A stretch of 64,000 nucleotides of DNA from Limnochordia bacterium (GCA_023230925.1 JALNWK010000005.1:13111-77110); one strand, 5' to 3'. Shown: positions 24,144-63,983, counted from the first letter of the stretch. A program made the numbers and translations. Notes: generated by a model from the letters alone, not told the origin.

Positions 24144-24155
24144 TTCCCGACTCTA

Positions 24156-41467: not shown

Positions 41468-42777
41468 TCGTTTCCTTTAGTCTCGGCTACCACAAGCTCG
41501 ATTTGGAGCTTACCTGTATTCCACGTATCATGTTGGGCAACAGCATTTACGATAAGGGTTCCTTCACTATCCCGCACCGCAGCTATTGCTTTGAAAAACT
41601 CCTCACCGCTTGTTTGCCCAACTCGTCCTTCGGTATCGGTGACCATACCCTTTGCAATGGCCAACTCATTAACTTGCCGTAGCAAGGACAAAATAACGTC
41701 CTCTATATTTTGGGTATCACCGCCGAGAACCTCCACACTGGCCAGCACTTCCCCTTTTTGGAACACCTTCTGCCTGGGTTTGATATCAAACCAAACAACT
41801 ACCCCTTCTCCTAATACAGTGTTTCCGTGGGCCACCGCCCGGACAACGTATTGGCCGCTTTCCTCTCCGAGAACACGCACCACTTGATCAAAGTGTTCTT
41901 CTGAATATAGCATAATCGCGTAGTTATCCTTGCCTTCAATTCGTGCCCCTCGACCGAGGGCTACTTGGTTGGCACGTAACAAAAACTGCACTAGATCCAA
42001 TTGTGCGGCGTCTTGTCCTTTTCCGCCCTCCATCACTTGAGCAAAGACTATCTCGTTTGCTTTGAATGCAAGATGTCCGTACCTCATCTGTTCGTTAAAT
42101 CGTTGATATGCCTCATCAAGCTTTTGATATTGTTCCAAAAGATTGACAATCTTAGTCTCAAGCAAGGTCTCCCGTTCCTGAAGCTCCCTAACCTTTGCTT
42201 GGATCATCTCACTTGCATCCTTAAGGTTCTCCACTCTTTCCTTCTCAAACTCCAGATCCTTCTCTGTAGTGGCAAGATCCTGTTTTGCCTGTAAATAAGC
42301 GCCTTGGATATCCTGAAGCTGCTGAATCACTATAGCCCTCTCTTGACGCGCTTCTTCTAGTTCCCGCATAGCTTCATTGCGCTGTTCCTCCATGAATGAT
42401 AATTCTTGTGCCTTCACTGTCACCTCAGACCGCAACGATTCCACCCTTAGTTGCTGTTCAGCGAGAAGGTCTTCGGCGTCTTCCAATAGTCTCTGGCTTT
42501 CCTCATAGCGACTCTCGCTTGTAGCTAGGGCCTGTTTTACTTCTTTCATGTGGAAAAGAGCTGTTCTGACATCCTCGGAGACTATCGACATTACCGTTAC
42601 ACTTGCCGCTGCAATGACCACACCGGTAAGAACAGTAATTATCATAGAGGTATATCTGGGTCGCATACCTAGAAGGGTTAGTCGTTTTTTACCAATCTTC
42701 ATCCCAATCCGATCCCCAATAAAGGCAATAACTCCACCGGTAATGATCAGTAATACAACTAACACAAAACCGCCCAC
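41464..42777 (-). CDS. Membrane-anchored coiled-coil protein (DUF3084-like)
   Basis: N-terminal TM helices followed by about 200 aa of coiled coil and a C-terminal globular domain. The family assignment is from memory. Confidence 0.5.
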   Translation of the reverse strand: MGGFVLVVLLIITGGVIAFIGDRIGMKIGKKRLTLLGMRPRYTSMIITVLTGVVIAAASVTVMSIVSEDVRTALFHMKEVKQALATSESRYEESQRLLEDAEDLLAEQQLRVESLRSEVTVKAQELSFMEEQRNEAMRELEEARQERAIVIQQLQDIQGAYLQAKQDLATTEKDLEFEKERVENLKDASEMIQAKVRELQERETLLETKIVNLLEQYQKLDEAYQRFNEQMRYGHLAFKANEIVFAQVMEGGKGQDAAQLDLVQFLLRANQVALGRGARIEGKDNYAIMLYSEEHFDQVVRVLGEESGQYVVRAVAHGNTVLGEGVVVWFDIKPRQKVFQKGEVLASVEVLGGDTQNIEDVILSLLRQVNELAIAKGMVTDTEGRVGQTSGEEFFKAIAAVRDSEGTLIVNAVAQHDTWNTGKLQIELVVAETKGNE

Positions 42778-42807: not shown

Positions 42808-43896
42808 TTACTTTTTTGCCCTAATTAGCAGTATAACAGCTGCAATTCCCACAAATAAGTTGGGTAGCCACGCACCGAGAAACGGCGCCAAGGCCCCACT
42901 CTCTCCTAGAGCCAGTCCAAAGGTCATCACAATATAGTAGACTAAAATAATTGCCATACTCATGCCAAAACCCACTGATGACGCTGAACGATGAGACTGA
43001 ATACCAAGTGGTGCTCCGACAAGAGAAAACATTAATGTGGCGGCTGGAGTTGCAAATCGGGCATGCAATTGGGTGAGTAATTTGGGATCAACATAACCTT
43101 GCCCACGTAAAATATCGATATGATCCTTTAGTTCCTTAGCGGTCATTTCATCGGGATGTTTCTGGTTCCTGGCAATATCCGTCGGTCGAAACGCGATATC
43201 CGCTGGCTGCCGTCCCTGACCAAACTGCATGGAAGCAAGTCCATCATCGGCATCATGATAGTACACTACAGCATCACTCATATACCATTGTTCAGAGTCC
43301 CATATCACCGATGTAGCATAAGTGGTACGCTGGGGCTTACCATTAGATAAATCCATCATGGTCACATCTCGCATGACCTTCTCTTGCCCATCGAATTCCG
43401 CCGCATAAAGAAACCAAGTCATTCGTTGCCTATCGTACCTCTTCAGAATAACATTTCTTTGGACCATTGACAAGTTTGTCCCTTTGACCTCCTCAGCTAT
43501 GATCCTGGAGGACTCAAGGTTGGCTGCGGGTAGAACATATGCATTAACTCCCAGGGCAAGGATGGTACCAACAATCCCTGCCACAATGGCAGGTCGGGTA
43601 ATCTGATAAAAGCTAATTCCCGCGGCACGCATCGCCACGACTTCACTAGCGGCGGACAGCTGGCTTAAGGATAGCAAAACACCTAGTAATACAGCCATGG
43701 GTAAGACCCAAACAATGATCTGGGGTAATCCCAGCAACAACAGACGTCCAGCAGTATTCCACGAAGCCCCATATTCCGTAACATAGCGGATCACCTTCAT
43801 GATGTCACTGCCAATAAAGATACTGCTAAAAACACCAATCCCAAACAGAATAGGAGGGACCAACAGTCTTATTAAATACCGATCCAATAGTTTCAT
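42808..43896 (-). CDS. lptG: LPS export ABC permease, LptF/LptG (YjgP/YjgQ) family
   Basis: [10 protein letters not shown]...[18 protein letters not shown]-terminal signature of LptF/G, 362 aa. Confidence 0.8.
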
Positions 43897-44609
43897 AGAC
43901 TAAACCGATCCCCCAAGTAGAACTTTCTGGCCACGGGATCCAATGCAATCTCCGAAGACGGTCCTTCAACCAGAACCTTTCCCTGATGCATAATATAGGC
44001 GCGATCAGTTATACTGAGGGTCTCACGCACATTATGATCTGTAATCAAAAGGCCCAGTCCCTTATCCTTGAGCATAGCAATAATGCCTTGAATATCCGCA
44101 ACGGCAATGGGATCCACCCCTGAAAACGGCTCATCCAGTAACATGTATCGAGGCCGTGCCGCTAGAGCTCTAGCAATCTCGACCCTTCGCCTTTCCCCTC
44201 CGGAAAGAACATATCCTCTTTGCTTGCGTATAGCAGCAATATCAAACTCATCGAGTAGCTCCTCAAGTCGATCAGTTCGCTGCTTTGGTGTCAGATCCAG
44301 CAGCTCCAGAACAGCCACAATGTTGTCCTCGACACTGAGCTTGCGAAATATGGAAGCTTCTTGGGCTAGATATCCGATGCCAAACCGTGCCCGTTTATAC
44401 ATTGGCCAGCTGGTCACATCGGTTCCATCAACGGATATTCTCCCGGCAGAAGGTCTTTCTAAACCAACAATCATGTAAAAGGTCGTGGTTTTACCGGCAC
44501 CGTTAGGTCCTAACAACCCGACAATTTCACCGGGTTCCACTTGAAGACTGACTTCATTGACAACTTTTCGCCTACCATAGCACTTGATCACCTGTTCTAC
44601 AACAATCGC
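43893..44609 (-). CDS. lptB: LPS export ABC transporter ATP-binding protein
   Basis: Start trimmed to MAIVVEQ. Walker [10 protein letters not shown] and signature [19 protein letters not shown] overlap with the lptFG-family gene. Confidence 0.85.
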
Positions 44610-44740
44610 CATATTGCCATGCTCCCCGCAGCATTCCTGTCCATGATGATATGCTTTTATTATAGCATCACTCCCGTTAACGGCAAAGGGCCCCGCCGAA
44701 TCAGGAGGGGCCCTTCTTCTCAAGTCTATGAAGCAACTCA

Positions 44741-47700
44741 CTACTTGCTGCTAATCGGAGTACCTGTTACCAAACTCATGAACGCCGTCATCAAGGCTTC
44801 GCTAGCCCTATTCCAATCAGGGATCTCATAATCTGCAACTTGCCCGATTGCACTAGGAAGTATTTCCGTACTTAGGCTTTCCCACAATTGCCGTGCTTCA
44901 GCCGCAACCTGATTAACATCATGGCGCTCCTCTAAGGACCGTTGAATAGTGAGTAATGTCCCCAAGGGATCCTGCAGCAGTGTCTCGAGGAAAACCTGCT
45001 CATTCTCATCAAGCGCATTCCAACTCCAGTCCCGACGGTCCACATCGAATCTCCAGTCTAACCCCGCTAGGGTTTCATCGAAGGCTGCCGCTACGGTGGT
45101 CATGTTTAGTGCCTCGGCTCTGGCACGGAAATCAACCATGGCGATATCTACAACTTCGGGCATCCGCTTGATTTCCTCCTTTACCCCAATCAGATGCCTT
45201 GCAGCTCCGATTAGCAAAGCGGCTTGCTCTACATCCAACGTTCTGACCTGGTTAGATGCCTCAATCAAGATACTATTTGCTGTGGCATAGCCAACATTCT
45301 GACCTCGATCGGATATGGTCTTTAGGGCAGCTGAGGTGGTGTTCATGATCGTCTGCAACCGACCACCAAGTGAAGTCTCACCTACCCAAAGCGTCTCAAA
45401 TACAAACGTATTGATTGCCTCGGCCGTTTCAGGAAAACCATCGGATGTGGCAACTGCTGCTAGTTCCTCATATAGTATGAACTGTGTTTCCCTTAATAGA
45501 GGAATCACATTGGCCGCATTAAGCTGTTGGCTACACAGTTGCTCTATACAACGATTAAAGACACCTCGAGCGTCCTCTTCCGTAATGCCCACTTCACTCA
45601 ACCGCGCAAACAGGTTCGGCTCCAACTCGCTATAGGTCGTCTTTACCTCGCTAATTGTACTGTTCAATCCGGTATTCAGTGCTGTGTAAACTTCATCAAC
45701 CAGTTGCTCAGTTAGATTCAGGTCAGGATAGGCGATGAGCGCATCAGATAAAGTCATGAAGCAGTCCGCCATATAGCTTTGGATTTGTGCTTCAGTGTAG
45801 CCAGACCCAAAAGCACAGCTTAGCCCATCACCCAATACAAGTATAGCCGCTTCTACATCACCAACCAAAACCTTCGTGGTTGCCAATACTCTGTAGTTAT
45901 CCACCGTCGGGAACTCAGTCACCAACTGTTCAGCATATTCCAAAGCAGAATTGAAGTCTTGAGTCTCCTCCAAGCAGATCCTAATGATCAAGTGCAAATC
46001 AGCTTCTTCTAATACGGCACCGGGCCAGTGAATCGCCTTATCCAAGGAGGCAATCGCCTCTTCAAACTTGTCGAGGTTATACTTAGCTACACCCATCATT
46101 GAGTGCATACGAGCAGTCTGATCGCTGTCGCTAAGTAGCCCTAGGGCTTGCTCCAAATCTGCCTCCGCTAAAGCCCACTCTGTCGAACTCACTTCCATTT
46201 CCGCACGACGTACATACGCCCACCCAAGGTCCACAGCATAACTAGCATCTAACCCATGGGCACTGGTTAGATAAGAGATAACATTATCAATCTCCTCGGC
46301 TCCTTGGGCAAGCATGTAGTAACACAGGGCTTGCTTTTCATTGTACAGAGCGGAGCCTGCGGGATAATCAAGGGCTGCCAGTTGGTACTTCTCGATAGCC
46401 CCTTGGTAATCCTCACTTGTAAATAGAGCCTCTGCCCATGCGGCATAGGCTTGCCCCCGGGCGGTTTTGTTCTCTTCACTATCTACAAGGGTAATGGCAT
46501 CGGTATATGCACCAATCGCTTGCTCATAGAAAGCTCCGTCCAAATACAGAGCACCAAGGGCTAGATATACATCCGCCTTACTTGCGATGTACTCAATCTC
46601 CCCGGTGGGATTTACGTATATGGCCAAGTCAAGCTTTGTTAGGGCTTGCTGCAAGGACTCCAAAGTCCCAAGTTCAACAAGCTCCAAAGCCCACTGGTAA
46701 TAGGCTAATCCATGGGCCTGGTTGTATTCTGTCTTTTGATCTGACTGCACTGCCATGGCAAAGTAGTTAACTGCATCAGCCCAATTCTCTGCTGCCATTT
46801 CCAGATTACCCAGGGCGAAATAGACCGCCGCCTTATTGGCAACATAGCCTGCTTCGCCATCAGGATGAATGGCAATAGCTAAGTTAAGTTTCTCTAAGGC
46901 CAGTTGCAGACTAGCTTCATCCCCTGCTACCGCCAATTGCAGTGCCCAATCACGATAGGTCTCGCCAAACGCTTGACGATTCTCCTCCAGCAATGCGGGC
47001 CAGAGCGCAAAGGCTTGGTTGTAGTAGTCTATAGCTGTTTCGTACTGACCGGCTGACTTGGCTGCAATCGCTTGATTGACTAGATTGCGGGCCTTTTGTT
47101 CATCGCTTGGCCAAAGATCCTCAATGGGTGTGCGAGTTACTAGACTCATAAAGGCTTCCATTAAGGCCGTTGCAGCAGTATTCCACTCTTCTACGGTGAA
47201 GTCCGGAATTTGGCCAATGGCCTCGGGAAGAATCTCGGTACCTACACTGTGCCAAAGGGCCATGGCCGCTGCGGCTGAATCATTTACATCATCATGTTCT
47301 TCCATTGCTCTTTGGATTACTAGTAGGATGCCCACTGGATCCTTCAGAAATGTCTCCAGAAATGCCTGTTCGTTTTCCTCTAGGCTATTCCAGTCCCAAT
47401 CCCGACGGTCTACATCAAACTTCCAATCATTGGCTGCTAAGACTTCATCAAAGGCTGTGGCAATTCCACCAAGCTGTAGCGCCTCAGCCCGCTCTTTGAA
47501 TTCTGCCAAAGCTATTTCAATAGCCCGGGGCATCTTCCGGATCTCATCACGGACGCTAATAATATGCCGTGTCGCTCCAATGAGTAACACTGCTTGCTCC
47601 ATATCCAAGTCGTAACCAACATAATCTGCACAATCCCAAAGGAGGTTCACAGCTACAGCTGAACCCAGAACCTCATTTCGATCAGATATGCCCCGCAAGG

Positions 47701-49483
47701 TTGTTACTGCGGTATCCATAATCGTTTGTAGCCGACCCCCGAGGGAGGCCTCACCAACCCAAAGGGTCTCAAATATGGCTTGGTTCACTGCTTCCGCTGT
47801 TGCTGCGAAATCACCGGTTGCCAAGGCAAGTAGCTCATCATACAGCTGGAATTGGGTCTCCCTTAAAAGAGGAATGATATTTGCCGCATTGAGATCTTGG
47901 CCTAACAAATGATCAATGCAGGTATCAAAAACTGTCCTTACCTGCTCTTCGGTAATCCCAACTACAGCTAGTTCGCTAAGGAAGTCCCCTTCTACCACAT
48001 CATAGGTGCTGACCACTTCCTCAATGCTAGCAGACACTGCATCGTAAAATACACTACCGATTTGCGCCAATAGCTCTTCCTCTAATCCCAAATCTGGATG
48101 AATGAGAAATGCATAGGCAGCAATATCGAAGTAATTACTAATGTAGTACTGAATGTCCTCATCGGTATAGTCTTCGCTAGCCAAGACCAACTTTAGTCCG
48201 TCAAGATAAGTAAATAGCCCTTCCTCAATGTTGCCATTAACCAAGTTTGCACAGGCCAGAATCTGATAACTGAATCCACCCGGGAATAACAGGACTGCTT
48301 GTTCTGCCACCATCAAGGCCGTATCTAGATCCTGTGCAACCTCAACACAGTACAGGAACACACTATAGTAATAATAAACATCAACTTGAACATCAGGGGC
48401 ATTAAGCCAACGCAGCCAGTATTCTACCGCTGTTGAGTAATCCTCTACCCCATTAGCTGTGGCAGCCATCAAGTACCATAGTTCTGAATTCTGTTCCTGT
48501 TCCGGAATCAAGCCAAGGGCAATGTTCATATCATCGTAAGCTGCCTCATATTCTGAAAGGCCGAGGTGTTCTGCCGCCCGCTCTGCATAGGCAAAACCTA
48601 AGTCGGCAGCGTAGCTAGGATCCAATTCATGGGCACTAGTGAGGTAAGAGATGACATCATCAGTCTCCTCGGCTCCTTGGGCAAGCATGTAGTAACACAG
48701 GGCTTGCTTTTCATCGTATAGAGCGGAGCCTGCGGGATAATCAAGAGTCGCAAGTTTGTATTTATCAATGGCACCTAAGTAATCTTCAGTTAGGAAAAGA
48801 GCCTCTGCCCAAGCAGCATAGGCTTGGCCCCGGGCGGTTTTGTTTTCCTCACTATCCACAAGGGTAATGGCATCGGTATATGCACCAATCGCTTGCTCAT
48901 AGAAAGCTCCGTCCAAATACAGAGCACCAAGGGCTAGATATACATCCGCCTTACTTGCTATATACTCAATCTCCCCAGTGGGATTAGCCGATATGGCCAG
49001 ATCAAGCTTCGTCAGGGCTTGCTGCAGGGACTCCAAAGTCCCAAGGTCCACAAGCTCCAAAGCCCACTGGTAGTAAGCTGATCCATGGGCCGCATCATAT
49101 TCCGTCCTTTGGTCCAGCTCAACTGCCAAGGCAAAGTAGTCAACCGCATCAGCCCAATTCTCTGCTGCCATTTTCAGATTACCCAGGGCGAGATACACCG
49201 CCGCCTTATTGACCACATATCCGGATTCGCCAGCGGGATGAATGTCTATGGCTAAGTCAAGCTTTTCTAAGGCCAGTTGCAGATTAACGTCTTCGCCAGT
49301 TGCAGCTAATTGAATCGCCCATTCAAAATAGACTTCGCCTACTGCGGCCCGATTCACCTCTAACAGGCTCTGTTCTAGATCAAAAGCCTGTTGGTACAGA
49401 CTCAGAGCTTCAGCATACTGTCCTTTACCCTTGGCCAACCGTGCCGCGGCTAGGAGCTTCTCAGCTTCTGTCGGAGCTGTATC
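44741..49483 (-). repeat. Intragenic tandem duplication, two units of about 2.37 kb each, boundaries approximate
   Basis: Nucleotide blocks at about 46255..46720 and about 48630..49090 are roughly 90% identical, including a stretch of about 100 nt with perfect identity (gggtaatggcatcggtatatgcaccaatcgcttgctcatagaaagctccgtccaaatacagagcaccaagggctagatatacatccgccttacttgc). The offset is about 2370 nt. Confidence 0.85.
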
Positions 49484-50545
49484 CTTTTCCGGCGGTTCAG
49501 GTACCGGTAGCACTAAATCAGCAACTGCATCAATATCTCCACCGGCACCAATGACATCACTTAGCGTATCAAGTGCGGCATTGATCTGGGAGAGAGATTC
49601 ACCATTTCGTACAATGTTGGAAAGAACTGAAGTAGTCCTTGTCATTTCCTGTCCCGACATACCCATATCCGCGGCATCCTGAAAAAGGGCCTGTAAGCGA
49701 CTAAGTAAACCTTCCACTTCTGCTGCACTCACCGATTGTCCGATTGCAGAGGAAAGGGCGGATAGAAGGTTCTCAAGTCCGGTGTCGGATATCCCAAGCT
49801 CCGCTCCATCTACAACAAGACCCGTGATCTGGGCAATCAACCGATGGACTTCATCTGCCGTGTTACACCGGAGGGATGCCTCATACAAAGCCTGGATGGT
49901 ACCTCTTACTACACTTGAACCGCCCATCTGTCCTAGGAAATCCTGTAGATACTCGATAACCTGCAACATATTAGTAGCATCACCTAGGGAAGCCACTATT
50001 TCCATAACGCTTAGCGTATCTTCGAGCGTCTGCTGACTATAATCAAGATCACCCATTTGCGTAAGAAAACCACTCAAGCTGGTGACGACATCACTAAGCT
50101 GATCAGGATCCTGGGTTGTCTTGCCGGTATTACCAAGCACCGCGGATACCTGGATAACGATCGTTGCACTTTGCTTCTGCTTGATCAAGTGAGTCACGAA
50201 TAACTCCACGTCATCGTCCCTGCCGTACTGGCTGGCGATGATCAAGTTCGATGCAACCTGCCCTGCTGTAGTAACAGAATAGCCTTCTTCCAGGACTGCT
50301 GGCACCGTATCCCCAATAATACCTTGGGGTATGACGGGATTTGACACATCAGCCAATGCCGCAGCTAGTGTGTTTGATACACTTTGCCAGAGAGCTAATT
50401 CTCTAAAGTAGTCGAGGTTAAGTGCTTCTACCTCCGACTGCACTTGGACCCATTGGGAATCAGAGAGCCCCTGTGCATTCACAATAGAACATAATAGGGT
50501 AAATAGTAACATAACGATAACGGGAATAGAGCTACGTCTTCTCAA
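44741..50545 (-). CDS. Giant (1934 aa) secreted TPR-like repeat protein composed of a unique N-terminus plus two copies of a roughly 790-aa unit
   Basis: Signal peptide [29 protein letters not shown]-like helical repeats of the form [13 protein letters not shown]. The second half repeats the first with long identical stretches. Confidence 0.85.
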
Positions 50546-51890: not shown

Positions 51891-53129
51891 TTATGGTGAA
51901 ATAGTATTATAATTAGACGAAACCTCCCGGATATACTGTCCAATCCTTTGTGCTCCACCAGGGCTGCCCATCCTTTTCTTGCCGCACGTAGCCATGCGTC
52001 GATATGTATCAGGATCATCTAGAATGGCCTCTACTTGCTTAGCTACACTAATAGGTGAAGGATCCACTAAGCTCACCGCATCACCTAGTAACTTCTTCTG
52101 GGCCAGGGCAAACTTTCTGGTAAACTGAACACCTTTTCCGGGAAAGGTAATAACAGGCTTGCCCAAACCTGCGGCTTGCTCGTTTGCTGTGCCCGCAAGT
52201 CCAATCACAAGATCACAAGCTCGGAGCAGGCCTCCAAAACATCCCTTCAGGAAAATAACCTCTGACTGATCACCAAGAATGATCTTACCTACCATCCCTG
52301 CGGACTGCTCATCGAATCCAGTCTCCTTGTAATACCAGCGACCATTGTCATATCCTTCTAAGCTAATCAGACTCGTAATCTGTTCAAAGGAGAGGCTCGA
52401 AGCCAAGGGGACAGCAAACTCGTATTGCGTGTCTCTTTGTGCAATTGCATCAACACACGCAAGCAAGTCCCCAAGATTGAGATAGGCATCACCCCTGCTA
52501 CCAGGTAGTAGACAGATCAATGGGGTGGTTGGGGTTTGGGGATAGACGGATCCATCCTGCATGAGCATATCCATCATTAGATTGCCGGCAAAATCAGCTT
52601 CTACACCGTGCCGAACCATGGCATCAGCGGTATATTGATCCCGGGCGTAGACCCTCTGACAATATCGACGCATTAGCTTATACTCCAACTCATAATGCCC
52701 ACTGATGAACTCTGTCTTAGCAGTAGCCACAAAGATCATGGGACGTTGGAGAAACCAACCCCCTAGAAGTACCGGATAGATATCTCCCACACAAACAACA
52801 AAATCTATAAACTCACGTGCCTTCCTTAAGGCGGATATCTGTGCTACAGTAAGCCCTACTAGACCAGCCTTGACGTCTTTCCAAAACTGCTTCAAGCCCA
52901 ATCTTGTAAAGCCGCCAGAGGGCATTTCCGCCCTAGGTCCAATGACCTCAATACCCTGCTTCCGGTAGGCTTCACCTAATCCCACCAAGGGAAGTGCGCA
53001 GATCTGGCTTTGCAGCGACAAGAGTTCCTCGAGAAGGACCGCGGCAATGGCATCCTCCCCGTGACCGTTACTCAAAAACAGAATTCTCTTATGCTGTACC
53101 CTCTCCATGATACTCTCTCTCCCACTCAC
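51891..53129 (-). CDS. LpxB-related GT-B glycosyltransferase (lipid-A-disaccharide synthase-related family)
   Basis: N-terminal ILFLSNGHGEDAIA Gly-rich loop analogous to LpxB AGEPSGD, 412 aa, immediately downstream of msbA. Confidence 0.5.
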   Translation of the reverse strand: MSGRESIMERVQHKRILFLSNGHGEDAIAAVLLEELLSLQSQICALPLVGLGEAYRKQGIEVIGPRAEMPSGGFTRLGLKQFWKDVKAGLVGLTVAQISALRKAREFIDFVVCVGDIYPVLLGGWFLQRPMIFVATAKTEFISGHYELEYKLMRRYCQRVYARDQYTADAMVRHGVEADFAGNLMMDMLMQDGSVYPQTPTTPLICLLPGSRGDAYLNLGDLLACVDAIAQRDTQYEFAVPLASSLSFEQITSLISLEGYDNGRWYYKETGFDEQSAGMVGKIILGDQSEVIFLKGCFGGLLRACDLVIGLAGTANEQAAGLGKPVITFPGKGVQFTRKFALAQKKLLGDAVSLVDPSPISVAKQVEAILDDPDTYRRMATCGKKRMGSPGGAQRIGQYIREVSSNYNTISP

Positions 53130-54851: not shown

Positions 54852-56099
54852 TCAACTCATCCCCTTCAATCCATATTGCTCAATTAGTAAATCCACAATA
54901 ACAGAAGCAGTATCCCTGGTCGGGGCAATCGCTGCAAGCTGCTCCCGCATCTTCTCGAGTTGTGCTGAATTTTCTAGTATATTCTGCACACAACATACCA
55001 CATCTTCAGCCCTTAAGCTACCCTTGCACTCAGGCATAATCTCGCAATCCACCCATCTATTGGGTAAGGCCAGATAGGGATTTCTCTGTAAGTAAGCTCT
55101 TATAGCCAGCTCTTTAATTAATGGCCCCATCAAAGGCACCTTCCCAATCCACTGAATCAGCCCGGGCATGGGAATAATCTCCGGCCGATTTAAGGGCACA
55201 ACAACAACCGTAGGCACATGAAGATAGCCCAGTTCCGCTGTATTCGTGCCGGGAATTGTAAGAGCAAGGTTGGTCCTTCTCATCATACCATATCTTTGTC
55301 CCCAGACCGCTTTAACTAGCCGTCCTTGCTCCGTAGTCAGAGACCAAATTCTTTGGCTGTCCCCGGATTCTTTTTTCTCCAGACATGTAGCCGTACTTCC
55401 GCCAAGAATCGACGATCTGTTTGAGGTAGCCTCTGCAAATAGCTCTTCGTCAATGAAGGGTGACATAACCATGACAAACTGCGCGTTTATACCCTTAAGC
55501 AACTCCACCACTTCGAAGAAAAAGGGGACTAAGTGGCGCACCTGCCAGGGACGACTCCCTGGAAAAAGACTGATCACAATATCCTCTTCACCAAGATCAA
55601 GTCGCTCAGACAATTCCCTATCGTCTTGGTAGTGATTCACCGCAGAAGCCATCAAGTTACCAACCATATTCACGTTACGATGTCCCCGGGATGTAAGCTT
55701 TTCTGCAACTTCGTCATCCGATGCAAAATAGGCATCAAAACTCAAGCGTCCTGCCATCCGCTCAATGTACATCGCAGCCGGATACCCCAGCCGTCGCGCC
55801 AGTTTCACAGCATAGGCCGGATCACCACCGAGGAATAAGACCACGCCACGGGCCGTAAAACTAGCTGGCCGTTTTCTTACCAAAAGCCCTAGAGCTTGAT
55901 CAGGACCTATAACCTGAGCCACGTGGGGCAAGTTCTTCACGATCTCCACTTCGGCACCACTAGCAAAAGGACATGGAGGAATAACCACACAGACTGGAGC
56001 CTCAGGAAGCCTAGACTCCAATCGGAGCAGCACCGGGAATAACCAAGCGGAGACTTCACCGGGACTGTTAACCGTAATCACAATTGTGGGTTGGCTCAT
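54852..56099 (-). CDS. Second LpxB-like (GT19-like) paralog of unknown specificity
   Basis: N-terminal VITVNSPGEVSA loop. The C-terminal half aligns with the authentic LpxB C-terminus: GTNTAELGYLHVPTVVVVPL / LALPNRWVDCEIMPE against GTATLEAALFQVPMVTMYRL / VALPNIIAGKCIVPE. Confidence 0.5.
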   Translation of the reverse strand: MSQPTIVITVNSPGEVSAWLFPVLLRLESRLPEAPVCVVIPPCPFASGAEVEIVKNLPHVAQVIGPDQALGLLVRKRPASFTARGVVLFLGGDPAYAVKLARRLGYPAAMYIERMAGRLSFDAYFASDDEVAEKLTSRGHRNVNMVGNLMASAVNHYQDDRELSERLDLGEEDIVISLFPGSRPWQVRHLVPFFFEVVELLKGINAQFVMVMSPFIDEELFAEATSNRSSILGGSTATCLEKKESGDSQRIWSLTTEQGRLVKAVWGQRYGMMRRTNLALTIPGTNTAELGYLHVPTVVVVPLNRPEIIPMPGLIQWIGKVPLMGPLIKELAIRAYLQRNPYLALPNRWVDCEIMPECKGSLRAEDVVCCVQNILENSAQLEKMREQLAAIAPTRDTASVIVDLLIEQYGLKGMS

Positions 56100-57250
56100 C
56101 AGGTACTACACCTCGCCCCAGCTGCCAGGTTCAGCACCACATCCGCACAACGCTCTACAGCTCCAGGGGGACCTAGTAATTCCCGGACTCGGCGTAGTTC
56201 ATGGATTTGACGCTCTCGTTTTGCTCCCTGTAACAATTGGACCGCCTCATGGGCAATATTTGGAGCCGTTACATCATGCTGAATCAATTCTGGGACGATG
56301 CATTTACCAGCAATAATGTTCGGCAGGGCTACATGGGGAATTTGTACGAGTATCTTGGCGATATGGTATGTGATCCTAGACAAACGATACATGGTAACCA
56401 TGGGCACCTGAAACAAAGCAGCCTCTAAAGTGGCAGTCCCACAGCTAATTAATGCTAAGTCCGCTACCGATAACAGATCATATTGGTACCCATGCACCAA
56501 CCGCAGGTTCAGACCACACCCCTTATTGGCAACAAACCCTCGGATTAGCGCATCATCAATACTAGCTGCCACCGGAACTAGGTATTGTACTGGTCTTAAG
56601 GAATTTGCCTGGATTAACCGCGCGGCTTCGAGCATGATTCCAAAGAGGGACTCAACTTCTTGCTGCCTACTGCCGGGCATTAGAGCAATCTGTAAAGCAT
56701 CTGGGTCAATGTTCAAGAAGCGGTAGACTTCCTCCCTGCCCATGGAAGGGTGTGCAGCATCTAATAGGGGATGTCCCACGTATTCCACATTGGCTCCAGC
56801 TTCTTGATAAACCGAAGCCTCAAAGGGGAACACCGAAGCAACCAGATCGATCAGTCCTGCTACTTTCTTGGCGCGTCCCCGACGCCAAGCCCAGGCCGAA
56901 GGACTAAAATAGTATACACTAGGTACTCCCATATCCTTGGCTGTCTTGGCCAACCTCATATTAAACCCTGGAAAGTCTATAAACACAATTGCGTCGGGGC
57001 GTTCTTCTTTGAGCTTTCCGGCCGTTCTATGGAGCAGCTTCAGAAGAAACCTAAAATGGCTAACTACCTCAGCGAAGCCAATGAAACTCATCGATGTAGG
57101 ATCCTCGAACAACTCCACTCCTGAGCTAGCCATTAACGGACCACCCAGACCAAAAAGGTAAACATGTGGGTTTTTCTTTCTAATTGCTACAGCCAGCTTC
57201 GAACCGTGGAGATCACCCGACGGCTCACCGGCGGCTAACATAATCTTCAT
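56099..57250 (-). CDS. lpxB: Lipid-A-disaccharide synthase
   Basis: MKIMLAAGEPSGDLHGSKLA, the canonical LpxB N-terminus, 383 aa. Confidence 0.9.
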   Translation of the reverse strand: MKIMLAAGEPSGDLHGSKLAVAIRKKNPHVYLFGLGGPLMASSGVELFEDPTSMSFIGFAEVVSHFRFLLKLLHRTAGKLKEERPDAIVFIDFPGFNMRLAKTAKDMGVPSVYYFSPSAWAWRRGRAKKVAGLIDLVASVFPFEASVYQEAGANVEYVGHPLLDAAHPSMGREEVYRFLNIDPDALQIALMPGSRQQEVESLFGIMLEAARLIQANSLRPVQYLVPVAASIDDALIRGFVANKGCGLNLRLVHGYQYDLLSVADLALISCGTATLEAALFQVPMVTMYRLSRITYHIAKILVQIPHVALPNIIAGKCIVPELIQHDVTAPNIAHEAVQLLQGAKRERQIHELRRVRELLGPPGAVERCADVVLNLAAGARCST

Positions 57251-58135: not shown

Positions 58136-58960
58136 CTAACCGCAGATACCCCGCTGGCTGCCCCGCAAGAACCGAAGCAAGTGATCGATCTCTGGAACGC
58201 CAGTCAGCTCCTGCTCCATCTGTTCAATCGCTTGGGTTACATTCAGATTAGAACGATACAATATCTTAAAGGCATGCTTAATCTGAGCGCGCACTTCAGG
58301 AATAATACCATTCCTGCGCAGTCCCACAATGTTTATTCCATAGACCTTCGCCGGATTCCCATCCACCATGAAAAAAGGAGGAACATCCATGGTAACCATA
58401 CTATGGGCTCCAAGCATAGCCATTTTTCCAATCTTCGTAAACTGATGTACTCCCGAAAGCCCACCAATTACAGCGGAGTCCTCTATTATAACATGACCAC
58501 CAATACCCGTTCCGTGGGAAATGATCACGTTATTGCCAATTTGACAGTCATGGGCCACATGGACATAGGACATAATCAAATTATGGTTACCTAGGCGGGT
58601 CTCACCACCGCCATCTTGAGTACCCACACTAATAGTCGCATATTCCCGTATGATATTTCCGTCACCGATGAACAGATAGCTTTTCTCCCCTTTGTATTTT
58701 AGATCCTGGGGCTCATTTCCGACCACTGCACCGGCATAAATGCGGTTGTTGGCTCCGATTCTTGTCCACCCTTCAATCACACAATGGGGACCAATGATCG
58801 TATTATCGCCAATCTCAACATTATCGCCTACGATAGCATAGGGTCCGATCTCTACATTCTTGCCTAGTACAGCTCTGGGGGACACAATCGCAGTTTGATG
58901 TATCTTCCGATGAATGTGTACCACATTACCACTTTTTACTTGCCTAGCTTGTTCTTCCAC
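58136..58960 (-). CDS. lpxA: UDP-N-acetylglucosamine O-acyltransferase
   Basis: Left-handed beta-helix hexapeptide repeats and near-colinear similarity to E. coli LpxA, including the C-terminal KHAFKILYRS helix. The start is probably downstream of the listed ATG. Confidence 0.9.
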   Translation of the reverse strand: MEEQARQVKSGNVVHIHRKIHQTAIVSPRAVLGKNVEIGPYAIVGDNVEIGDNTIIGPHCVIEGWTRIGANNRIYAGAVVGNEPQDLKYKGEKSYLFIGDGNIIREYATISVGTQDGGGETRLGNHNLIMSYVHVAHDCQIGNNVIISHGTGIGGHVIIEDSAVIGGLSGVHQFTKIGKMAMLGAHSMVTMDVPPFFMVDGNPAKVYGINIVGLRRNGIIPEVRAQIKHAFKILYRSNLNVTQAIEQMEQELTGVPEIDHLLRFLRGSQRGICG

Positions 58961-58973
58961 AGTCTCGCCACCC

Positions 58974-59399
58974 TTATTCTTCAGAAGCCATCATGAAAAG
59001 CAGCTCTGCCTCCGCGGCCAAGTCGCCATCCACATAAGCTTTCCCTTGGATCTTGGCCACTTTTCTACGGGCCTGCAGTACTTCGACTTCCAAGATTAAC
59101 TGATCACCAGGCCCCACCACTCTACGGAACTTAGCTTTGTCCACACCGGCGAAAAGCGGTACAACATTGGCGTCTTCAGGCAATACCACTACGCCTGCGG
59201 CTTGAGCCATAGCCTCTAAGATCAATACCCCAGGCATGATTGGATTACCAGGATAATGGCCTTGAAAATGGGCCTCATTCATGGTCACATTCTTCAGTGC
59301 CTTCGCTCTTCGGCCCGGCTCTAGTTCCACAATGCGATCTACCAACAAAAAAGGGTAACGATGGGGTATCTTGTCCATTATTTGACGTATATCAAGCAA
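58974..59399 (-). CDS. fabZ: 3-hydroxyacyl-ACP dehydratase
   Basis: [17 protein letters not shown]...[16 protein letters not shown] hot-dog fold signature. Confidence 0.9.
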
Positions 59400-59447
59400 C
59401 CATATTCCTCCTAGTCCTGGATACTACAAGGCAAACAACGGCCTTGC

Positions 59448-60284
59448 CTATGCTAAACACAAGTTGCTGCGCATTTGCTTAGCAAGAGAGATATTCAACC
59501 GATGTCCGGATTTGATCGCAATAATATGGGCGGAGACCTGACCTAACAGACTCATATCGCCAATAATATCCAAAACCTTATGCCGCACGATCTCATTAGA
59601 AAACCGTAATTCATTCACATAACGGTCTTCGCCCACAACCACTGCCACATTCAAACTACCACCCATGGCCAACCCCGCCTCTTGCATTTTCGCAATTTCG
59701 TGAGCGAATCCAACGGTTCGTGCCGGAGCTATCTCACTACGAAAACTGCCTTTCCCCAAGGTGTACTCCATGAATTGGTTACCCACTACCGGGTGGTCGG
59801 AAACAAAGGAGTAACTGATTCGCAATTCCGGATAGGGCAGGGCAACCATATGGGAATCTCCGCTGGATACCCAACAAGGTTTTTCCAGCGTAAAACGTCG
59901 ACCCGGTTCATTATAGACGATTGTCCCAGCAGATTCAATCAATTCACAAAAAAGGGCAGCAGAACCATCTGCGATGGGTACTTCTTCCCCATCTATATCA
60001 ATCTGGGCATTATCGATCCCAGAGGCTTGCAAAGCCGCAAGCAAGTGTTCTACGGTCTTTACATAAACCCCCTCCCCACCGAGGGTGGTGCATCTGTTGG
60101 TTTCCATCACATTGTCAACAACCGCCTGGATCAGGGGCTGACCCGGTAAATCAACTCGACATAATATATATCCGGTATTTGGTCCTGCTGGTTTAATCGT
60201 AATAGTTGTCGATTGGCCTGTATGTATACCTGTTCCGGTATACGATATTTCCCTACCAATCGTTGTTTGCAGGGAGGACATCAA
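59448..60284 (-). CDS. lpxC: UDP-3-O-acyl-N-acetylglucosamine deacetylase
   Basis: QTTIGREISYTGTGIHTG N-terminus, 278 aa, first gene of the lpxC-fabZ-lpxA block. Confidence 0.9.
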   Translation of the reverse strand: MMSSLQTTIGREISYTGTGIHTGQSTTITIKPAGPNTGYILCRVDLPGQPLIQAVVDNVMETNRCTTLGGEGVYVKTVEHLLAALQASGIDNAQIDIDGEEVPIADGSAALFCELIESAGTIVYNEPGRRFTLEKPCWVSSGDSHMVALPYPELRISYSFVSDHPVVGNQFMEYTLGKGSFRSEIAPARTVGFAHEIAKMQEAGLAMGGSLNVAVVVGEDRYVNELRFSNEIVRHKVLDIIGDMSLLGQVSAHIIAIKSGHRLNISLAKQMRSNLCLA

Positions 60285-60399: not shown

Positions 60400-61119
60400 T
60401 TATGAAACCAGCAAACGCTTGTACTTCCTGCCGATATCCGACTGGGGTTCTTCAAAGATCCGATCGGGGGTACCAGTCTCCACAACCCTCCCCTTGTCCA
60501 TGAGGACGATCCGATCTGCTACCCGGCGTGCAAAGGACACTTCATGGGTGACAATGATCATAGTAGTGTTACTTGTCGCGATTAGCTCCTCCATTACGTC
60601 AAGAACCTCGCGCACCAATATGGGATCCAAGGATGCGGTTGGTTCGTCCCACAACATAAGTTGTGGTTCCATGGCTAGGGCTCTAGCAATCCCAACCCTC
60701 TGCTGTTGACCACCGCTGAGCTCTGCTGGCTTCTGCTGCCAGGACTCATCCATGCCCACTCTACTCAGGGCAAGCATGGCCCGGTCCCTAGCTAATTTTT
60801 CATCTTTTCCGTCCATAACAAGGCCAAACATGACGTTTTCCAAAACGTTAAAGCGACCGATCAAATTGAAACCTTGGAAGACGTAACCTATTTTCTTCCG
60901 CAAAGCCAAAAGATCCCTGCGGTTCATATCTAGTACTGACTGTTCCTGCAGTAATATGCGCCCGTGATCCGGCTCCACAAGACGGTTTATGCACCGAACA
61001 GAGGTGGATTTCCCGCAACCACTGGGCCCCATAATAACGACGGTTTCCCCCTCTTCAACATCTAGCATAAATCCATCCAGGGCCGTGATTTTCCCATAGT
61101 GTTTGATCAAATCAATCAT
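60400..61119 (-). CDS. ABC transporter ATP-binding protein of the polar-amino-acid (GlnQ/HisP) family
   Basis: Start trimmed to MIDLIKHYGK. GPSGCGKST...RCINRL...LSGGQQQRVGIARALA...VTHEVSFARRVADR is near-colinear with GlnQ. Confidence 0.8.
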   Translation of the reverse strand: MIDLIKHYGKITALDGFMLDVEEGETVVIMGPSGCGKSTSVRCINRLVEPDHGRILLQEQSVLDMNRRDLLALRKKIGYVFQGFNLIGRFNVLENVMFGLVMDGKDEKLARDRAMLALSRVGMDESWQQKPAELSGGQQQRVGIARALAMEPQLMLWDEPTASLDPILVREVLDVMEELIATSNTTMIIVTHEVSFARRVADRIVLMDKGRVVETGTPDRIFEEPQSDIGRKYKRLLVS

Positions 61120-61148
61120 TCGCAAAAACACAGAACAACCCCCTACGC

Positions 61149-63242
61149 TCAGCACTTTTTTCGCCGTTGATTTATGGTCTGCACAATACCAGGTCTGCCA
61201 GCGGGAATTACAATCTCTCGCAGGATCTGCGCGTAGGATAGCCCCAAAGCCTCTGCAGCTAGTATCTCTTCTCCGTTAACAGGGCTAATCCGCTCGGCAA
61301 GCAAAGCCATAACAGTACCAATCAAAGCACCTAGGACAAACACCAAGAAGGTATTTAGGTGAGGAATGTTTCCCCCACTTAACCAGTAGATGGCGCTCAG
61401 CAATAAGGATCCTGAAGCTGCACCGAATAGCACCGTTGGAACTAACGTTCTTAGCCTACGTCGATTACCTCTACAGCTGTTAAGCAACAGTCGTCTAGCT
61501 GCATTAAGAATAGTGGCCTGATCCAAAAGAAACACCAAAACGACAAAGACAATACTGAGCAGGCCCGCGATGATACCACGGACTTCACTAAGCACATTGA
61601 ATAAGACTGAGATGGCACTTGGCATGATCACTCCAACGGGTAAGGTAAACACATCAATGTGCTCAAATCCGTCAAGTCCTTGTAGGGAATGCTCTAGTTC
61701 CTGGTAAGGTATATTCCCGTCAAGCAAGAACTCGATTTTGCTCCCTGGGATTACATCGCCGCCAAGATATTGATCAATCAAGGCCACAGACTGACCGATT
61801 TCCTCATCGGCCAGCTGGGGCAGGCTATCTTTCACAAAGCGAATCTGCTCAATTATCTGCTCTAGGTCAATGGTTGAGATAGCACCGATTCTAGTGGAGA
61901 TGCTTTCCAATGTATCTTGCATCGCCGCCACATCTAGATCCTTGAAAGAACCCACAGGATCATCACCAGCACCCATGGCTTCCTTAAACAAGTTGTTCAG
62001 TAGTAACGTCAATAGTAGTTCAGTGCCTTGCGGAGTACCGTTAGGGCTTTGACTTAATTGGGTAAGCTGCTGCTGCAGTTGACCTAACTGAACCAAGGCG
62101 CGCTGGAAGGTCTTTAGTGTCTGTTCAGCATTGGAAACCGCAGTGTCGGCATCCTCAGCAAGTCCCTCCAGTTCTTGAAGCAGTTCGACACTATCATCAA
62201 TGGCCTGGGCTAACCGGTATCTTTCATTACTGATCGTAACGGTACCGACTTGTTCGCCTACCTGATCCTGGGGCAGTAATCTGTAGATTGGCATGCATTC
62301 TAAAGACGCCGTCATGTTTGAGGCATCACCGACAATAACCAACGCCGAAGCCAGTCTTTCATTCACCTGGAGTACTTCTACCACCAGATCCCCGGTATCA
62401 CCGTTTGTAACCATCAAACGTTCCCCTGGATGCACATCGTTAGCTTCGGTAAGGGTGATTTCCACCCGGGAAGCATAAGTCAACAGAAAGCTCTTCATTT
62501 CATGAAGTACTTTACGAAATGACTGCACACTCTGGTCATCTTCTCCGGATGAGATGTCCTTGAGAACACGAGGCTGAAACTTTGCGGTAATCTGCTCCTG
62601 CAAAGTAGCCGACAATCCTTGTATATCCTGGGGATCAGTATCTAGGGGCAAACGAAACTCAATCAGTTGATAGGACTCAAGCAACCCAGTGATCCTTTCC
62701 CGCACACGACTGCTTTCATCTACTGTTTCCAATAGGACATAGACATCGGAACCTTTAGTGAAAGCACAGCGCACATTGTCGAACAGCTCTATCTCACTGA
62801 CTAATTCCTGACGGACCCCTTGATTGACACCACTAATAACAATGGAAGGCTCGGCAACAATGGTTACACCGGAAAAACCGGAGACCCCGGCAAAATATGA
62901 CGCTAAATTCTGAAAAATGTCTGCGGAATAATACTCATCTGGCAGCCCTAAAAACAAGTTGGTCTTTCCCGCGATGGTTATTCCTTCTTTCCACTTGGCT
63001 CCCGGCAGACTCTCCTCAATGATTCTTTTGAACTCAGGAATCGCCGCTTCTTTGGCCTCCTTCCTGATATGTATCACCGCATCATACTGTCCCAATTCCC
63101 CTACTAATCCTGCCGCGGTATCACCAAAGTACGTATCCACTGCCCAAGCTCCACCGGCCGCAAGCAAAGACCCTACGAGAATTGTAACAATAAAGATACT
63201 TAACAGATCTTTTGCAAAACCATCTGAAAATACGGTGAGCAT
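61149..63242 (-). CDS. Atypical ABC membrane component: N-terminal TM, roughly 500-aa extracytoplasmic domain with coiled coil, three C-terminal TM helices, and a terminal EAA coupling loop
   Basis: Start trimmed to MLTVFSDGF. The C-terminus EEILAAEALGLSYAQILREIVIPAGRPGIV matches the EAA-x3-G...I.LP motif of amino-acid ABC permeases. The protein ends 28 aa later and overlaps the ATPase gene. Confidence 0.6.
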   Translation of the reverse strand: MLTVFSDGFAKDLLSIFIVTILVGSLLAAGGAWAVDTYFGDTAAGLVGELGQYDAVIHIRKEAKEAAIPEFKRIIEESLPGAKWKEGITIAGKTNLFLGLPDEYYSADIFQNLASYFAGVSGFSGVTIVAEPSIVISGVNQGVRQELVSEIELFDNVRCAFTKGSDVYVLLETVDESSRVRERITGLLESYQLIEFRLPLDTDPQDIQGLSATLQEQITAKFQPRVLKDISSGEDDQSVQSFRKVLHEMKSFLLTYASRVEITLTEANDVHPGERLMVTNGDTGDLVVEVLQVNERLASALVIVGDASNMTASLECMPIYRLLPQDQVGEQVGTVTISNERYRLAQAIDDSVELLQELEGLAEDADTAVSNAEQTLKTFQRALVQLGQLQQQLTQLSQSPNGTPQGTELLLTLLLNNLFKEAMGAGDDPVGSFKDLDVAAMQDTLESISTRIGAISTIDLEQIIEQIRFVKDSLPQLADEEIGQSVALIDQYLGGDVIPGSKIEFLLDGNIPYQELEHSLQGLDGFEHIDVFTLPVGVIMPSAISVLFNVLSEVRGIIAGLLSIVFVVLVFLLDQATILNAARRLLLNSCRGNRRRLRTLVPTVLFGAASGSLLLSAIYWLSGGNIPHLNTFLVFVLGALIGTVMALLAERISPVNGEEILAAEALGLSYAQILREIVIPAGRPGIVQTINQRRKKC

Positions 63243-63344
63243 CGGGCTCCCTCCCCAAGATATGGATAATGCGTTTGACTTTTGCATTAGCATTATACCA
63301 TAGGTGGAAAGGGAGCAGAACAAGCAAATTGGGCTACTTATGTC

Positions 63345-63983
63345 TTAAAGTGTAAAGTCCAAACGCCCCGGCCCAGTTCCAATAATACTCTCATTGTCAA
63401 GATCAATGGTGAAACTTGCACCTCGCCATGTTCCTTGTTCGGTGATCAGGCTTGCGTTACCTGTTAGGAAAACAACTTCCTCAGCATCTAGGTAGGTCAC
63501 TACATCTGCACGGCCCTCTCGATCCTTATTGAAGAAGACCACATCTTCCTGGGCAATCATCTTGTTCTCGGTGTCAAAATACTCAAGGTATCCTGACCTA
63601 AGCTCAACTTTTGTCCCTTCCCCAGCAGACTCTCGTTGCACCAGATGAACATTCCCACTGATTATGTATCGTTCTTCATCAAACAGGGCCTCGACCTTAT
63701 CTGCCGTGATGACGCTGTCTTCTTTCACCACGCGAACCTGGCCAGTAATCAGTGCCCGCTGCTCTTTTCCAAAGTATTCCACCCGGGTTGCAGTTATTTC
63801 CATACGTTCAAAGGTAATCCGCACATAGCCGGCCTTTGGAGCAATAACCCAGATGTCTTCCTTTAAGTCTCCGGTCACCGACGTGTCATCGATTGGCGCA
63901 TCGATTACCTCAATGGTGACTTGTTTGCTTTCCTGCGCGTATACCCCAATACTAAGCAATCCAACTAGCAAAACCACCCACAC
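63345..63983 (-). CDS. Periplasmic OstA-like (LptA/LptC family) protein
   Basis: Signal peptide, then repeated beta-jellyroll motifs (ITADKVEALFDEERYIISGNVHLVQ; VVTYLDAEEVVFLTGNASLITEQG) typical of LptA/LptC OstA_N domains. GTG start at the window edge. Confidence 0.6.
   Translation of the reverse strand: MWVVLLVGLLSIGVYAQESKQVTIEVIDAPIDDTSVTGDLKEDIWVIAPKAGYVRITFERMEITATRVEYFGKEQRALITGQVRVVKEDSVITADKVEALFDEERYIISGNVHLVQRESAGEGTKVELRSGYLEYFDTENKMIAQEDVVFFNKDREGRADVVTYLDAEEVVFLTGNASLITEQGTWRGASFTIDLDNESIIGTGPGRLDFTL

Follow-up and report, generated by a model that had tools for sequence, protein, structure and literature searches.

A conserved ABC module with a shortened membrane subunit among the lipopolysaccharide genes of diderm Bacillota

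What does an ATP-binding cassette (ABC) ATPase of the amino-acid-importer kind do among genes for lipopolysaccharide (LPS), next to a membrane protein that stops shortly after its coupling loop? The question is raised by positions 60,400 to 63,983 of a 64,000-nucleotide stretch of Limnochordia bacterium DNA (GCA_023230925.1 JALNWK010000005.1:13111-77110). That whole stretch is called the window here. The positions in question hold an LptA-like gene, a gene for a 697-residue membrane protein, called X from here on, and the gene for the ATPase.

Within an LPS and outer-membrane gene cluster, X and the ATPase form one ABC module, separate from LptB2FG, MsbA and Mla. Its task is probably mechanical work on the envelope, and not nutrient import.

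The pair is an ABC system with a new membrane-domain architecture, conserved but undescribed. No Pfam or NCBIfam model covers X. Surveys of the diderm-Firmicute envelope do not mention the pair (Antunes 2016, PMC5007114; Poppleton 2017, PMC5491611; Grasekamp 2023, PMC10665443), although a mention in Taib et al. 2020 is possible. The available part of a 2026 study of Acetonema longum (PMC13018214) does not mention it either.

Membrane protein X and its ATPase

The open reading frame (ORF) of X spans 61149-63323, and an upstream TTG in it is not used as a start. The start is the ATG at 63242. It has a Shine-Dalgarno site (GGGGAGGGAG) 5 nt upstream, and all homologues begin with ML.F..DGF. The protein therefore has 697 residues, as an earlier reading of this locus, made from the sequence only, had estimated.

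X is laid out as one transmembrane (TM) helix, a periplasmic module of about 500 residues, three more TM helices and an EAA coupling loop, after which it ends. A hydropathy scan and an AlphaFold2 model agree on this topology, which the sequence-only reading had also proposed. The model was built with 97 diverse family members and has a predicted local distance difference test (pLDDT) score of 89.3 and a predicted TM-score (pTM) of 0.70; an earlier run with 14 sequences was poor (pLDDT 63.5). It is used here by way of its secondary structure and its Foldseek matches.

In the model, TM2, TM3 and TM4 are the helices 543-589, 595-622 and 631-652. Three short helices on the cytoplasmic side come next (657-665, 670-681 and 686-691), and the chain ends at 697. 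Asp574 in TM2 is invariant. The segment past TM1 is acidic, the loop between TM2 and TM3 (RRLLLNSCRGNRRRLR) strongly basic and the tail basic. These charges fit a topology with both ends inside, and the basic TM2-TM3 loop is therefore cytoplasmic. The nearest named relative of X is found in Candidatus Darwinibacter acetoxidans, at 40% identity.

The EAA motif (AAEALGLSYAQILREIVIPAGRP) occupies residues 662-684. A profile of the C-terminal 170 residues of the family (A4) was compared by hhalign with ten E. coli type-I permeases (MetI, ArtM/Q, PotB/C, HisM/Q, GlnP and PstA/C). The match reaches 95.3% (E 2e-8, 43 columns) and aligns X 645-688 with MetI 106-148, which is the EAA loop. Under relaxed settings TM2-4 of X are colinear with TM1-3 of MetI, at low confidence outside the EAA loop, and residues 157-217 of MetI (TM4-5) have no counterpart in X. 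Run against PDB sequences, the A4 profile has as its five best matches PotC, MetI and Art-type permease entries, with the EAA motif in register, although individually these are not significant (E 0.03-0.2).

Pfam gives a similar picture. BPD_transp_1 (PF00528) is matched below threshold by 22 of 29 segments from the transmembrane domain (TMD), with a best E of 1.2e-4; no other family is matched by more than two of the 29. The match covers profile positions 43-111 of 184, and roughly the last 40% of the profile is missing. The gathering score of 26.4 bits is not reached: the TMD segment of the window's X scores 15.4 bits, and the full protein has no match to this or any other Pfam family. The NCBIfam hint for full-length X is limited to PstC (E 0.006), over the EAA region.

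Because of these profile matches the EAA loop of X is homologous to that of type-I importers, as the sequence-only reading had it, yet the five-helix core is incomplete. The two TM helices expected past the loop are absent across the family, and also in the fusions described below. X shares the loop with type-I permeases, but not the score, the two post-loop helices or a solute-binding protein (SBP). That reading had let X end 28 residues past the loop, which was approximate: 13 residues follow the motif given above, and 30 follow the invariant Gly667. In type-I importers the helices past the EAA loop contribute to the translocation pathway. Given their absence from X, a canonical pore is unlikely.

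Could the short C-terminus be an accident of sequencing or decay? A word-indexed protein search finds 14 close homologues of X, all full length at 697-707 residues. When 1.84 billion cluster representatives are searched exhaustively with a profile, 232 match at E<=1e-3, 143 of them at E<=1e-30. The C-terminal motif E..AG..LGLS...IMREIV(I/V)P.(G/A)RPGLL..LNRR...F was located in about 95 of the 162 sequences fetched, and where it was located the proteins usually end 12-13 residues after RPG. Six cluster representatives, 932-996 residues long, run straight from X into an ABC_tran domain. One of these natural fusions belongs to a cultured member of the Limnochordia, Carboxydochorda subterranea. 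The fusions show that the ATPase has X as its membrane partner, and that no piece has been lost between the EAA loop and the nucleotide-binding domain (NBD).

The shortness of X is a family design, since the C-terminus is conserved family-wide and the NBD fusions are in frame. A frameshifted or decaying gene for a canonical permease would explain the unusual ending, and nothing more. It does not account for the same C-terminus in about 95 sequences from three bacterial classes, for identities of 25-45% to genomes of GTDB species along the full length, for six in-frame fusions, or for the lack of spare DNA downstream. Such an artefact has a negligible chance of being the right account, and we rule it out. 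The truncation is real, and no frameshift restores a longer permease.

In the databases, unfused X proteins are mostly named "hypothetical protein". Exceptions are the "ABC transporter permease" of PGAP, an arginine-permease label in IMG and a phasin label. The fusions go by "ATP-binding cassette domain-containing protein".

The ATPase has all its motifs intact: Walker A GPSGCGKST, Q-loop VFQGFNL, signature LSGGQQQR, Walker B LMLWDEPTASLD with the catalytic Glu, and H-loop VTHE. It matches PF00005 (E 2.7e-35). The best NCBIfam model is GlnQ (NF007027) at 243.5 bits, under the equivalog cut-off of 379, and no other equivalog cut-off is reached, so the protein is GlnQ-like and not GlnQ. FtsE scores lower than GlnQ, and the 25 best NCBIfam models do not include LptB. 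The closest solved structures are 4u00 (6.5e-61), 4yms, ArtP and HisP, with E from 1e-54 to 1e-61. All this agrees with the polar-amino-acid family to which the ATPase had first been assigned. Identity is 56% to the Orenia gene at the same position, and both this ATPase and that of Orenia are 30% identical to the LptB of the window.

The longest ATPase ORF is 60400-61155. An overlap with X would need the GTG at 61155 as the start, but homologues and a ribosome-binding site favour GTG 61131 or ATG 61119, which leaves a spacer of 17-29 nt. It had been argued that there is no room for further helices in X because the ATPase gene overlaps. There is indeed no room, but the overlap is probably not real. 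Judging by the sequence comparisons, the engine of the module (the GlnQ/ArtP-like NBD with the EAA loop) appears to descend from a polar-amino-acid type-I importer.

The periplasmic module of X is predicted to contain ferredoxin-like domains, a helical hairpin whose length varies, and a small beta-barrel. The model has beta-alpha-beta-beta-alpha-beta units at 55-128 and 133-197 and then a helical pair, followed by a small all-beta barrel at 259-338, the hairpin, and a beta-alpha-beta-beta unit at 502-540. The hairpin contains QLGQLQQQLTQLSQ, and at 1.5 Å per residue its 59-residue helix would be about 9 nm long. Across 97 members the helical region measures 93-292 residues. In some of the longer members examined (P0019 and P0024; handles with P and L are ours, for proteins and loci) the extra length falls just past profile position ~400.

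No PDB entry is a convincing match by Foldseek to the whole chain of the X model. The nearest are the resistance-nodulation-division (RND) pumps MmpL5/MmpL4 with their periplasmic coiled coils (9mvz_D, E 4.8e-4; 9syt_B, 1.7e-3; TM-score ~0.1). Single domains match ACT/ferredoxin-like tandems and a barrel like domain III of eIF2-gamma. A sequence profile of the whole family, run against PDB sequences, finds only generic coiled coils in region 335-500. One match to an MCE protein in the PDB (13hr_I, E 0.003) covers the coiled coil of X only.

The sequence-only reading had allowed for an ordinary solute-binding domain fused to a permease. This is ruled out, as Pfam, Foldseek and the PDB sequence profile give X no SBP match by family, fold or sequence. 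The same result bears on the idea that the pair imports a solute after all, perhaps an envelope precursor or a polyamine. The module would then be a tethered receptor, and the pore would come from the eight-helix dimer or from the dimer plus a partner with two TM helices. Such an importer would fit the type of the NBD and of the EAA loop, PotC as the best PDB sequence match, and the IMG label of one member as an arginine-transport permease. It does not fit a module without an SBP match, or the loss of the BPD_transp_1 part past the EAA loop in every member, fusions included, where the NBD follows directly. Nor is an SBP gene conserved nearby: none is among the conserved neighbours of the pair, in the contigs of relatives or in the GTDB loci listed below. 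We consider import very unlikely.

Genomic context and taxonomic spread

Contigs of relatives, down to about 28% identity, carry bamA, skp, lpxD, a YjbH-like gene, lptF/G, a divergent lptD, lptC and lptA, and then X. In the same relatives X is followed by the ATPase, lpxC, fabZ, lpxA, lpxI, lpxB and msbA. These are loci of Limnochordia type and of Halanaerobiales (Orenia); on longer contigs the cluster is also seen in loci of Negativicutes type.

For a wider view, one genome per GTDB species was scanned with a degenerate DNA pattern for the EAA motif, which yields at least 120 loci. By hmmsearch, 107 of the 120 loci listed encode a true member of the X family; the counts and neighbours in this section hold among these matches. 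An orthologous ATPase lies directly after X in 104 of the 107 genomes, and in the remaining 3 X is at the edge of the locus. In 64 of the 104 the next gene is lpxC. Some genomes have fabZ or lptB after the pair and no lpxC nearby. Upstream of X one finds lptA/lptC in genomes of Limnochordia type, and an LpxL-like acyltransferase in those of Negativicutes type and also in L011.

The sequence-only reading had suggested checking the synteny of these genes, and had taken the OstA-fold neighbour to point to an envelope or LPS-related role. The pair itself is kept together, as the counts show. The LPS and outer-membrane context stands and is much wider than supposed, but the OstA-fold gene is not the key neighbour, lpxC being the most conserved.

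This adjacency invites another explanation, in which the pair is a device for LPS homeostasis. The module would sense the state of LPS or of the outer membrane, and the engine would tune the level or activity of LpxC, much as PbgA(YejM)/LapB/FtsH do in E. coli. The tightest conserved adjacency is that of X, the NBD and lpxC, and according to the available text of Antunes 2016 (PMC5007114) and of PMC13333357, LpxC is the regulated committed step of lipid A synthesis. The genomes without lpxC near the pair speak against it, however, and Pfam, NCBIfam and Foldseek find no domain resembling PbgA or LapB in X. Also, ABC engines normally send energy outward from their NBDs, not signals inward. As an account of the pair we hold this to be unlikely.

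True members of the family are labelled Limnochordia, Darwinibacter, unclassified Bacillota or Negativicutes. The Negativicutes are Sporomusa malonica, S. rhizae, S. acidovorans, Pelosinus, Dendrosporobacter, Lucifera, Massilibacillus and Selenomonadales. Protein searches add the Halanaerobiales Orenia, Halonatronum, Halanaerocella and Natroniella. The pair is thus present in all three diderm classes (Limnochordia, Negativicutes and Halanaerobiales), and among the matches listed it is found only in these lineages.

Labels outside the Bacillota occur on four records only, all from PRJNA950955 and given as Betaproteobacteria, Bacteroidota or Patescibacteria (L054, L091, L102, L104). Each has a member of the same X family, and those whose neighbours can be seen have lpt or lpx genes next to it. 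We therefore suspect that they are mis-binned contigs of metagenome-assembled genomes. A 'Syntrophothermus sp.' bin of the same project (L057) has a full LPS cluster too, and may be mislabelled.

Several Sporomusaceae and Selenomonadales have a second X-ATPase pair outside the LPS cluster (L024, L029, L061, L076, L101, L109, L122, L135). The pair in L008 is preceded by two proteins of about 200 residues without family assignment. These were considered as OstA-like proteins and rejected, as they are paralogous multi-TM proteins. An identical X protein (P0012) is found in two contexts, L001 versus L002.

The divergent LptD of the relatives lies between lptF/G and lptC and has 717-894 residues (L002 6557-8710, L003 6078-8267, L009 5697-8381, L007 345-2789). 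It has only marginal matches to LptD_N, LptD or DUF3769, and standard annotation leaves the gene unnamed; its place is just beyond the end of the window. A protein of 717-729 residues upstream of lptC was considered as a paralogue of X. It shows no similarity to X and is this divergent LptD. In one of the two contexts of P0012, on the 1.86-Mb contig of GCA_900198705.1, the LptD-like gene upstream of X is cut to 219 residues, and the flanks are unrelated. This suggests a chimeric join in that assembly.

In the window itself all genes of the region are on the minus strand, going by the translated ORFs (Table 1). Transcription runs from the OstA-fold gene through X, the ABC ATPase, lpxC, fabZ, lpxA, an LpxI-like gene and lpxB, and on through an LpxB-like glycosyltransferase, msbA, a TIGR03492 lipid-A-disaccharide-synthase-related gene and a 393-residue gene without assigned family. 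A 1934-residue TPR protein, lptB, an LptG-like permease and a DUF3084 protein come last. Because of this lpx, lpt and msbA content the window is an LPS and outer-membrane cluster of diderm Bacillota. The ATPase is followed by lpxC at 60284, and lpxC, fabZ and lpxA (58136..60284) are probably co-transcribed with the module. Scans for terminators between lptA, X, the ATPase and lpxC and for promoters in the region find nothing that exceeds chance. The OstA-fold gene matches PF03968 LptD_N (E 1.2e-13) and the LptA model TIGR03002 (E 1.4e-11), the latter under that model's cut-off.

Table 1. Features of the window, with positions counted from its first nucleotide; residue numbers refer to X
Feature	Position	Strand	Basis or remark
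212-aa LptA-like periplasmic protein of OstA fold with N-terminal signal or anchor, immediately upstream of X	63345..63983	-	PF03968, TIGR03002
X, 697-aa membrane subunit of the ABC module	61149..63242 (stop codon 61149-61151)	-	no Pfam or NCBIfam family
X residues 2-47: TM1, prolonged as a long helix into the periplasm	63102..63239	-	AlphaFold2 block pLDDT 80-98; hydropathy peak 13-31
X residues 48-542: periplasmic module	61617..63101	-	AlphaFold2 secondary structure
X residues 340-493: helical hairpin / coiled coil	61764..62225	-	AlphaFold2: 59-residue helix 340-398 and return helices
X residues 543-652: TM2, TM3, TM4	61287..61616	-	hydropathy, AlphaFold2
X residues 653-697: EAA coupling loop (E..A....G.......R....P..RPG) and short basic C-terminal tail	61152..61286	-	hhalign, motif conservation
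ABC ATPase partner of X, polar-amino-acid-importer type, no C-terminal regulatory domain	60400..61131	-	239-251 aa by start 61119, 61131 or 61155
lpxC	59448-60284	-	conserved downstream neighbour of ATPase
fabZ	58974-59399	-	conserved downstream neighbour
lpxA	58136-58960	-	conserved downstream neighbour
lpxB	56099-57250	-	
LpxB-related gene	54852-56099	-	flanks msbA
LpxB-related gene	51891-53129	-	flanks msbA
1934-aa protein	44741-50545	-	Pfam: TPR repeats only
lptB, bona fide	43893-44741	-	TIGR04406, 363 bits vs cut-off 240
LptG-like permease	42808-43896	-	
DUF3084 protein	41464-42777	-	
1315-aa protein	35223-39170	-	N-terminal SLH domain, no other Pfam match
2047-aa Wza-like polysaccharide-export protein	25628-31771	-	Poly_export and ~20 SLBB repeats, 751 bits
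Wzz/GNVR, tyrosine-kinase-like ATPase, CpsB phosphatase	22618-25613		downstream of the Wza-like gene

Some other genes of the window deserve a word. Besides lpxB there are two further LpxB-related genes, one on each side of msbA. One is a weak LpxB match and the other belongs to TIGR03492, 'lipid-A-disaccharide synthase-related', at 349 bits; the arrangement is kept in the relatives L005, L006 and L010. The TPR protein sits between the 393-residue gene and lptB, inside the LPS cluster. The DUF3084 protein adjoins the LptG-like gene and lptB, here and in the relatives L002 and L010, and its family has been flagged as a candidate new outer-membrane-related gene (Antunes et al. 2016, PMC5007114). 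Further along, the protein with the SLH domain is possibly related to the S-layer or to tethering of the outer membrane. The Wza-like protein is of unusual length for an outer-membrane polysaccharide exporter.

Proposed mechanism and what it would mean

With moderate confidence, we read X and the ATPase as a homodimeric, non-importing ABC mechanotransducer or extractor that works in LPS and outer-membrane biogenesis of diderm Bacillota. The module and its place in the cluster are observed; from them we infer the stoichiometry, the transmission of force and the substrate. In ABC systems two NBDs must dimerise, and therefore the simplest unit is X2-NBD2, with eight TM helices. The membrane domain of X would have kept the helices before the EAA loop, would do without the two after it, and would have gained the periplasmic module of about 500 residues between TM1 and TM2.

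Binding and hydrolysis of ATP at the NBD dimer would shift the EAA helices and TM2-4. The motion would be relayed by the extensions of TM1 and TM2 to the periplasmic module. There it may serve to extract or hand over a lipid of the LPS pathway or of the outer membrane, in step with lipid A synthesis (lpxC-fabZ-lpxA). Alternatively, the output may be control of a partner in the periplasm or the outer membrane. The link to lpxC-fabZ-lpxA and to lptC/lptA points to the handling of LPS or outer-membrane lipids, or to its control.

A number of things weigh against this reading. Outside the EAA loop the homology of TM2-4 to importer helices is weak, and a small membrane protein could supply the missing helices. 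No substrate-binding feature was found in X, and its periplasmic module lacks the beta-jellyroll or MCE domain by which it could be tied to the known lipid bridges. There are also X copies outside LPS clusters (L008, L012 and the second copies in Sporomusaceae), so the role need not be strictly LPS-linked.

It is also conceivable that no lipid is moved at all. In a regulator like FtsEX, the ABC engine would switch the periplasmic module so that it activates or positions a periplasmic enzyme or tether, such as a peptidoglycan hydrolase or the OmpM/SLH tethering system. X shares the four-TM topology of FtsX in its AlphaFold2 model, its in-built hairpin recalls the EnvC/PcsB coiled coils that are gripped by FtsX, and FtsE/FtsX/EnvC is a weak Foldseek match (8tzk_C, E 0.14). 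But among the matches listed no hydrolase or LytM/CHAP gene is conserved beside the pair, its neighbours being lpxC-fabZ-lpxA, lptA/lptC or LpxL. X has no sequence similarity to the FtsX domain, and the NBD scores lower under FtsE than under GlnQ. A role of this kind seems improbable to us.

Returning to the mechanotransducer or extractor, its importance lies in the lineages involved. Diderm Firmicutes are the main model for the gain or loss of the bacterial outer membrane. Their envelope machinery is known as a reduced version of the E. coli set: LptE is lacking, Negativicutes have no Lol, and Mla is minimal. In the assembly of LPS and the outer membrane, the X-ATPase pair readily suggests itself as a missing step or a control point.

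A bolder claim can be put forward, tentatively. X2-NBD2 may be a new structural class of ABC system, in which half of a type-I permease acts as a mechanotransducer facing the periplasm, and it may be an ancestral and overlooked component of LPS and outer-membrane assembly in diderm Bacillota. If so, it could fill one known gap, such as that left by the lack of LptE or, in most lineages, of Lol, or it could serve the control of LpxC. X would then also be a marker gene, lost along with the outer membrane in monoderm Firmicutes.

Comparison with known systems

Like LptB2FGC and MlaFEDB, the module may plausibly act on the periplasmic side of the inner membrane, and X shares an operon with lpt and lpx genes. 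Unlike LptB2FG, X has no LptF_LptG match in Pfam, and its ATPase, at 30% identity to the LptB of the window, is not an LptB. It was considered as the Lpt engine and rejected, because a bona fide LptB with an LptG-like partner is present elsewhere in the window (42808-44741).

As for Mla, Pfam finds neither MlaE (PF02405) nor MCE (PF02470) in X. Halanaerobiales lack Mla, and few Limnochordia have it (Grasekamp 2023, PMC10665443). A replacement of Mla by the pair was considered and rejected. The family occurs in Sporomusa, Pelosinus, Dendrosporobacter, Lucifera and Selenomonadales, and Negativicutes have Mla; the two coexist there, so the pair is no simple replacement.

The RND pumps MmpL5/MmpL4 resemble X in their porter-like alpha/beta subdomains, from which a long helical hairpin, present as an insertion, reaches into the periplasm. 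They are proton-driven proteins with 12 TM helices, however. The likeness is one of modules and not of overall fold, and it implies no homology.

The type-I polar-amino-acid importers (HisQMP2, Art(QN)2, GlnPQ) have the nearest NBDs, and their EAA loop is the one that X shares, in register with MetI 106-148. The helices of X before the loop are colinear with importer helices, at low confidence outside the loop itself. In contrast to these importers, X has no TM helices after the EAA loop and no SBP, and between TM1 and TM2 it carries a module of about 500 residues that is not an SBP. Its context is LPS biosynthesis and not nutrient uptake, and all its BPD_transp_1 matches are below the gathering score.

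The type-VII systems (MacB, LolCDE, FtsEX, BceAB) have four TM helices per subunit, as X does, and a large periplasmic domain between an extended TM1 and TM2. Alpha/beta (ferredoxin-like) periplasmic subdomains, the lack of an obvious transmembrane pathway and a role in the envelope are further points in common. However, X couples through its C-terminal EAA loop and not through a coupling helix between TM2 and TM3, and its NBD is of importer type, not that of MacB, LolD or FtsE. The structural match by Foldseek is weak only. Neither FtsX (PF02687) nor MacB_PCD matches X, at E<=1 for the full protein and at E<=10 for the 29 TMD segments. The sequence-only reading had called the pair more like FtsEX or LolCDE than like an importer, and this is right for the topology of four TM helices with a periplasmic domain, but not for membership of the FtsX or MacB families by sequence.

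In topology, then, X works most like a type-VII system, yet by sequence it is not a member of one. Starting from a different ancestor, it has arrived at the FtsX/MacB topology by convergence. The pair indicates that the engine of a type-I importer, the NBD with its EAA loop, can persist while the solute pathway gives way to a large periplasmic module.

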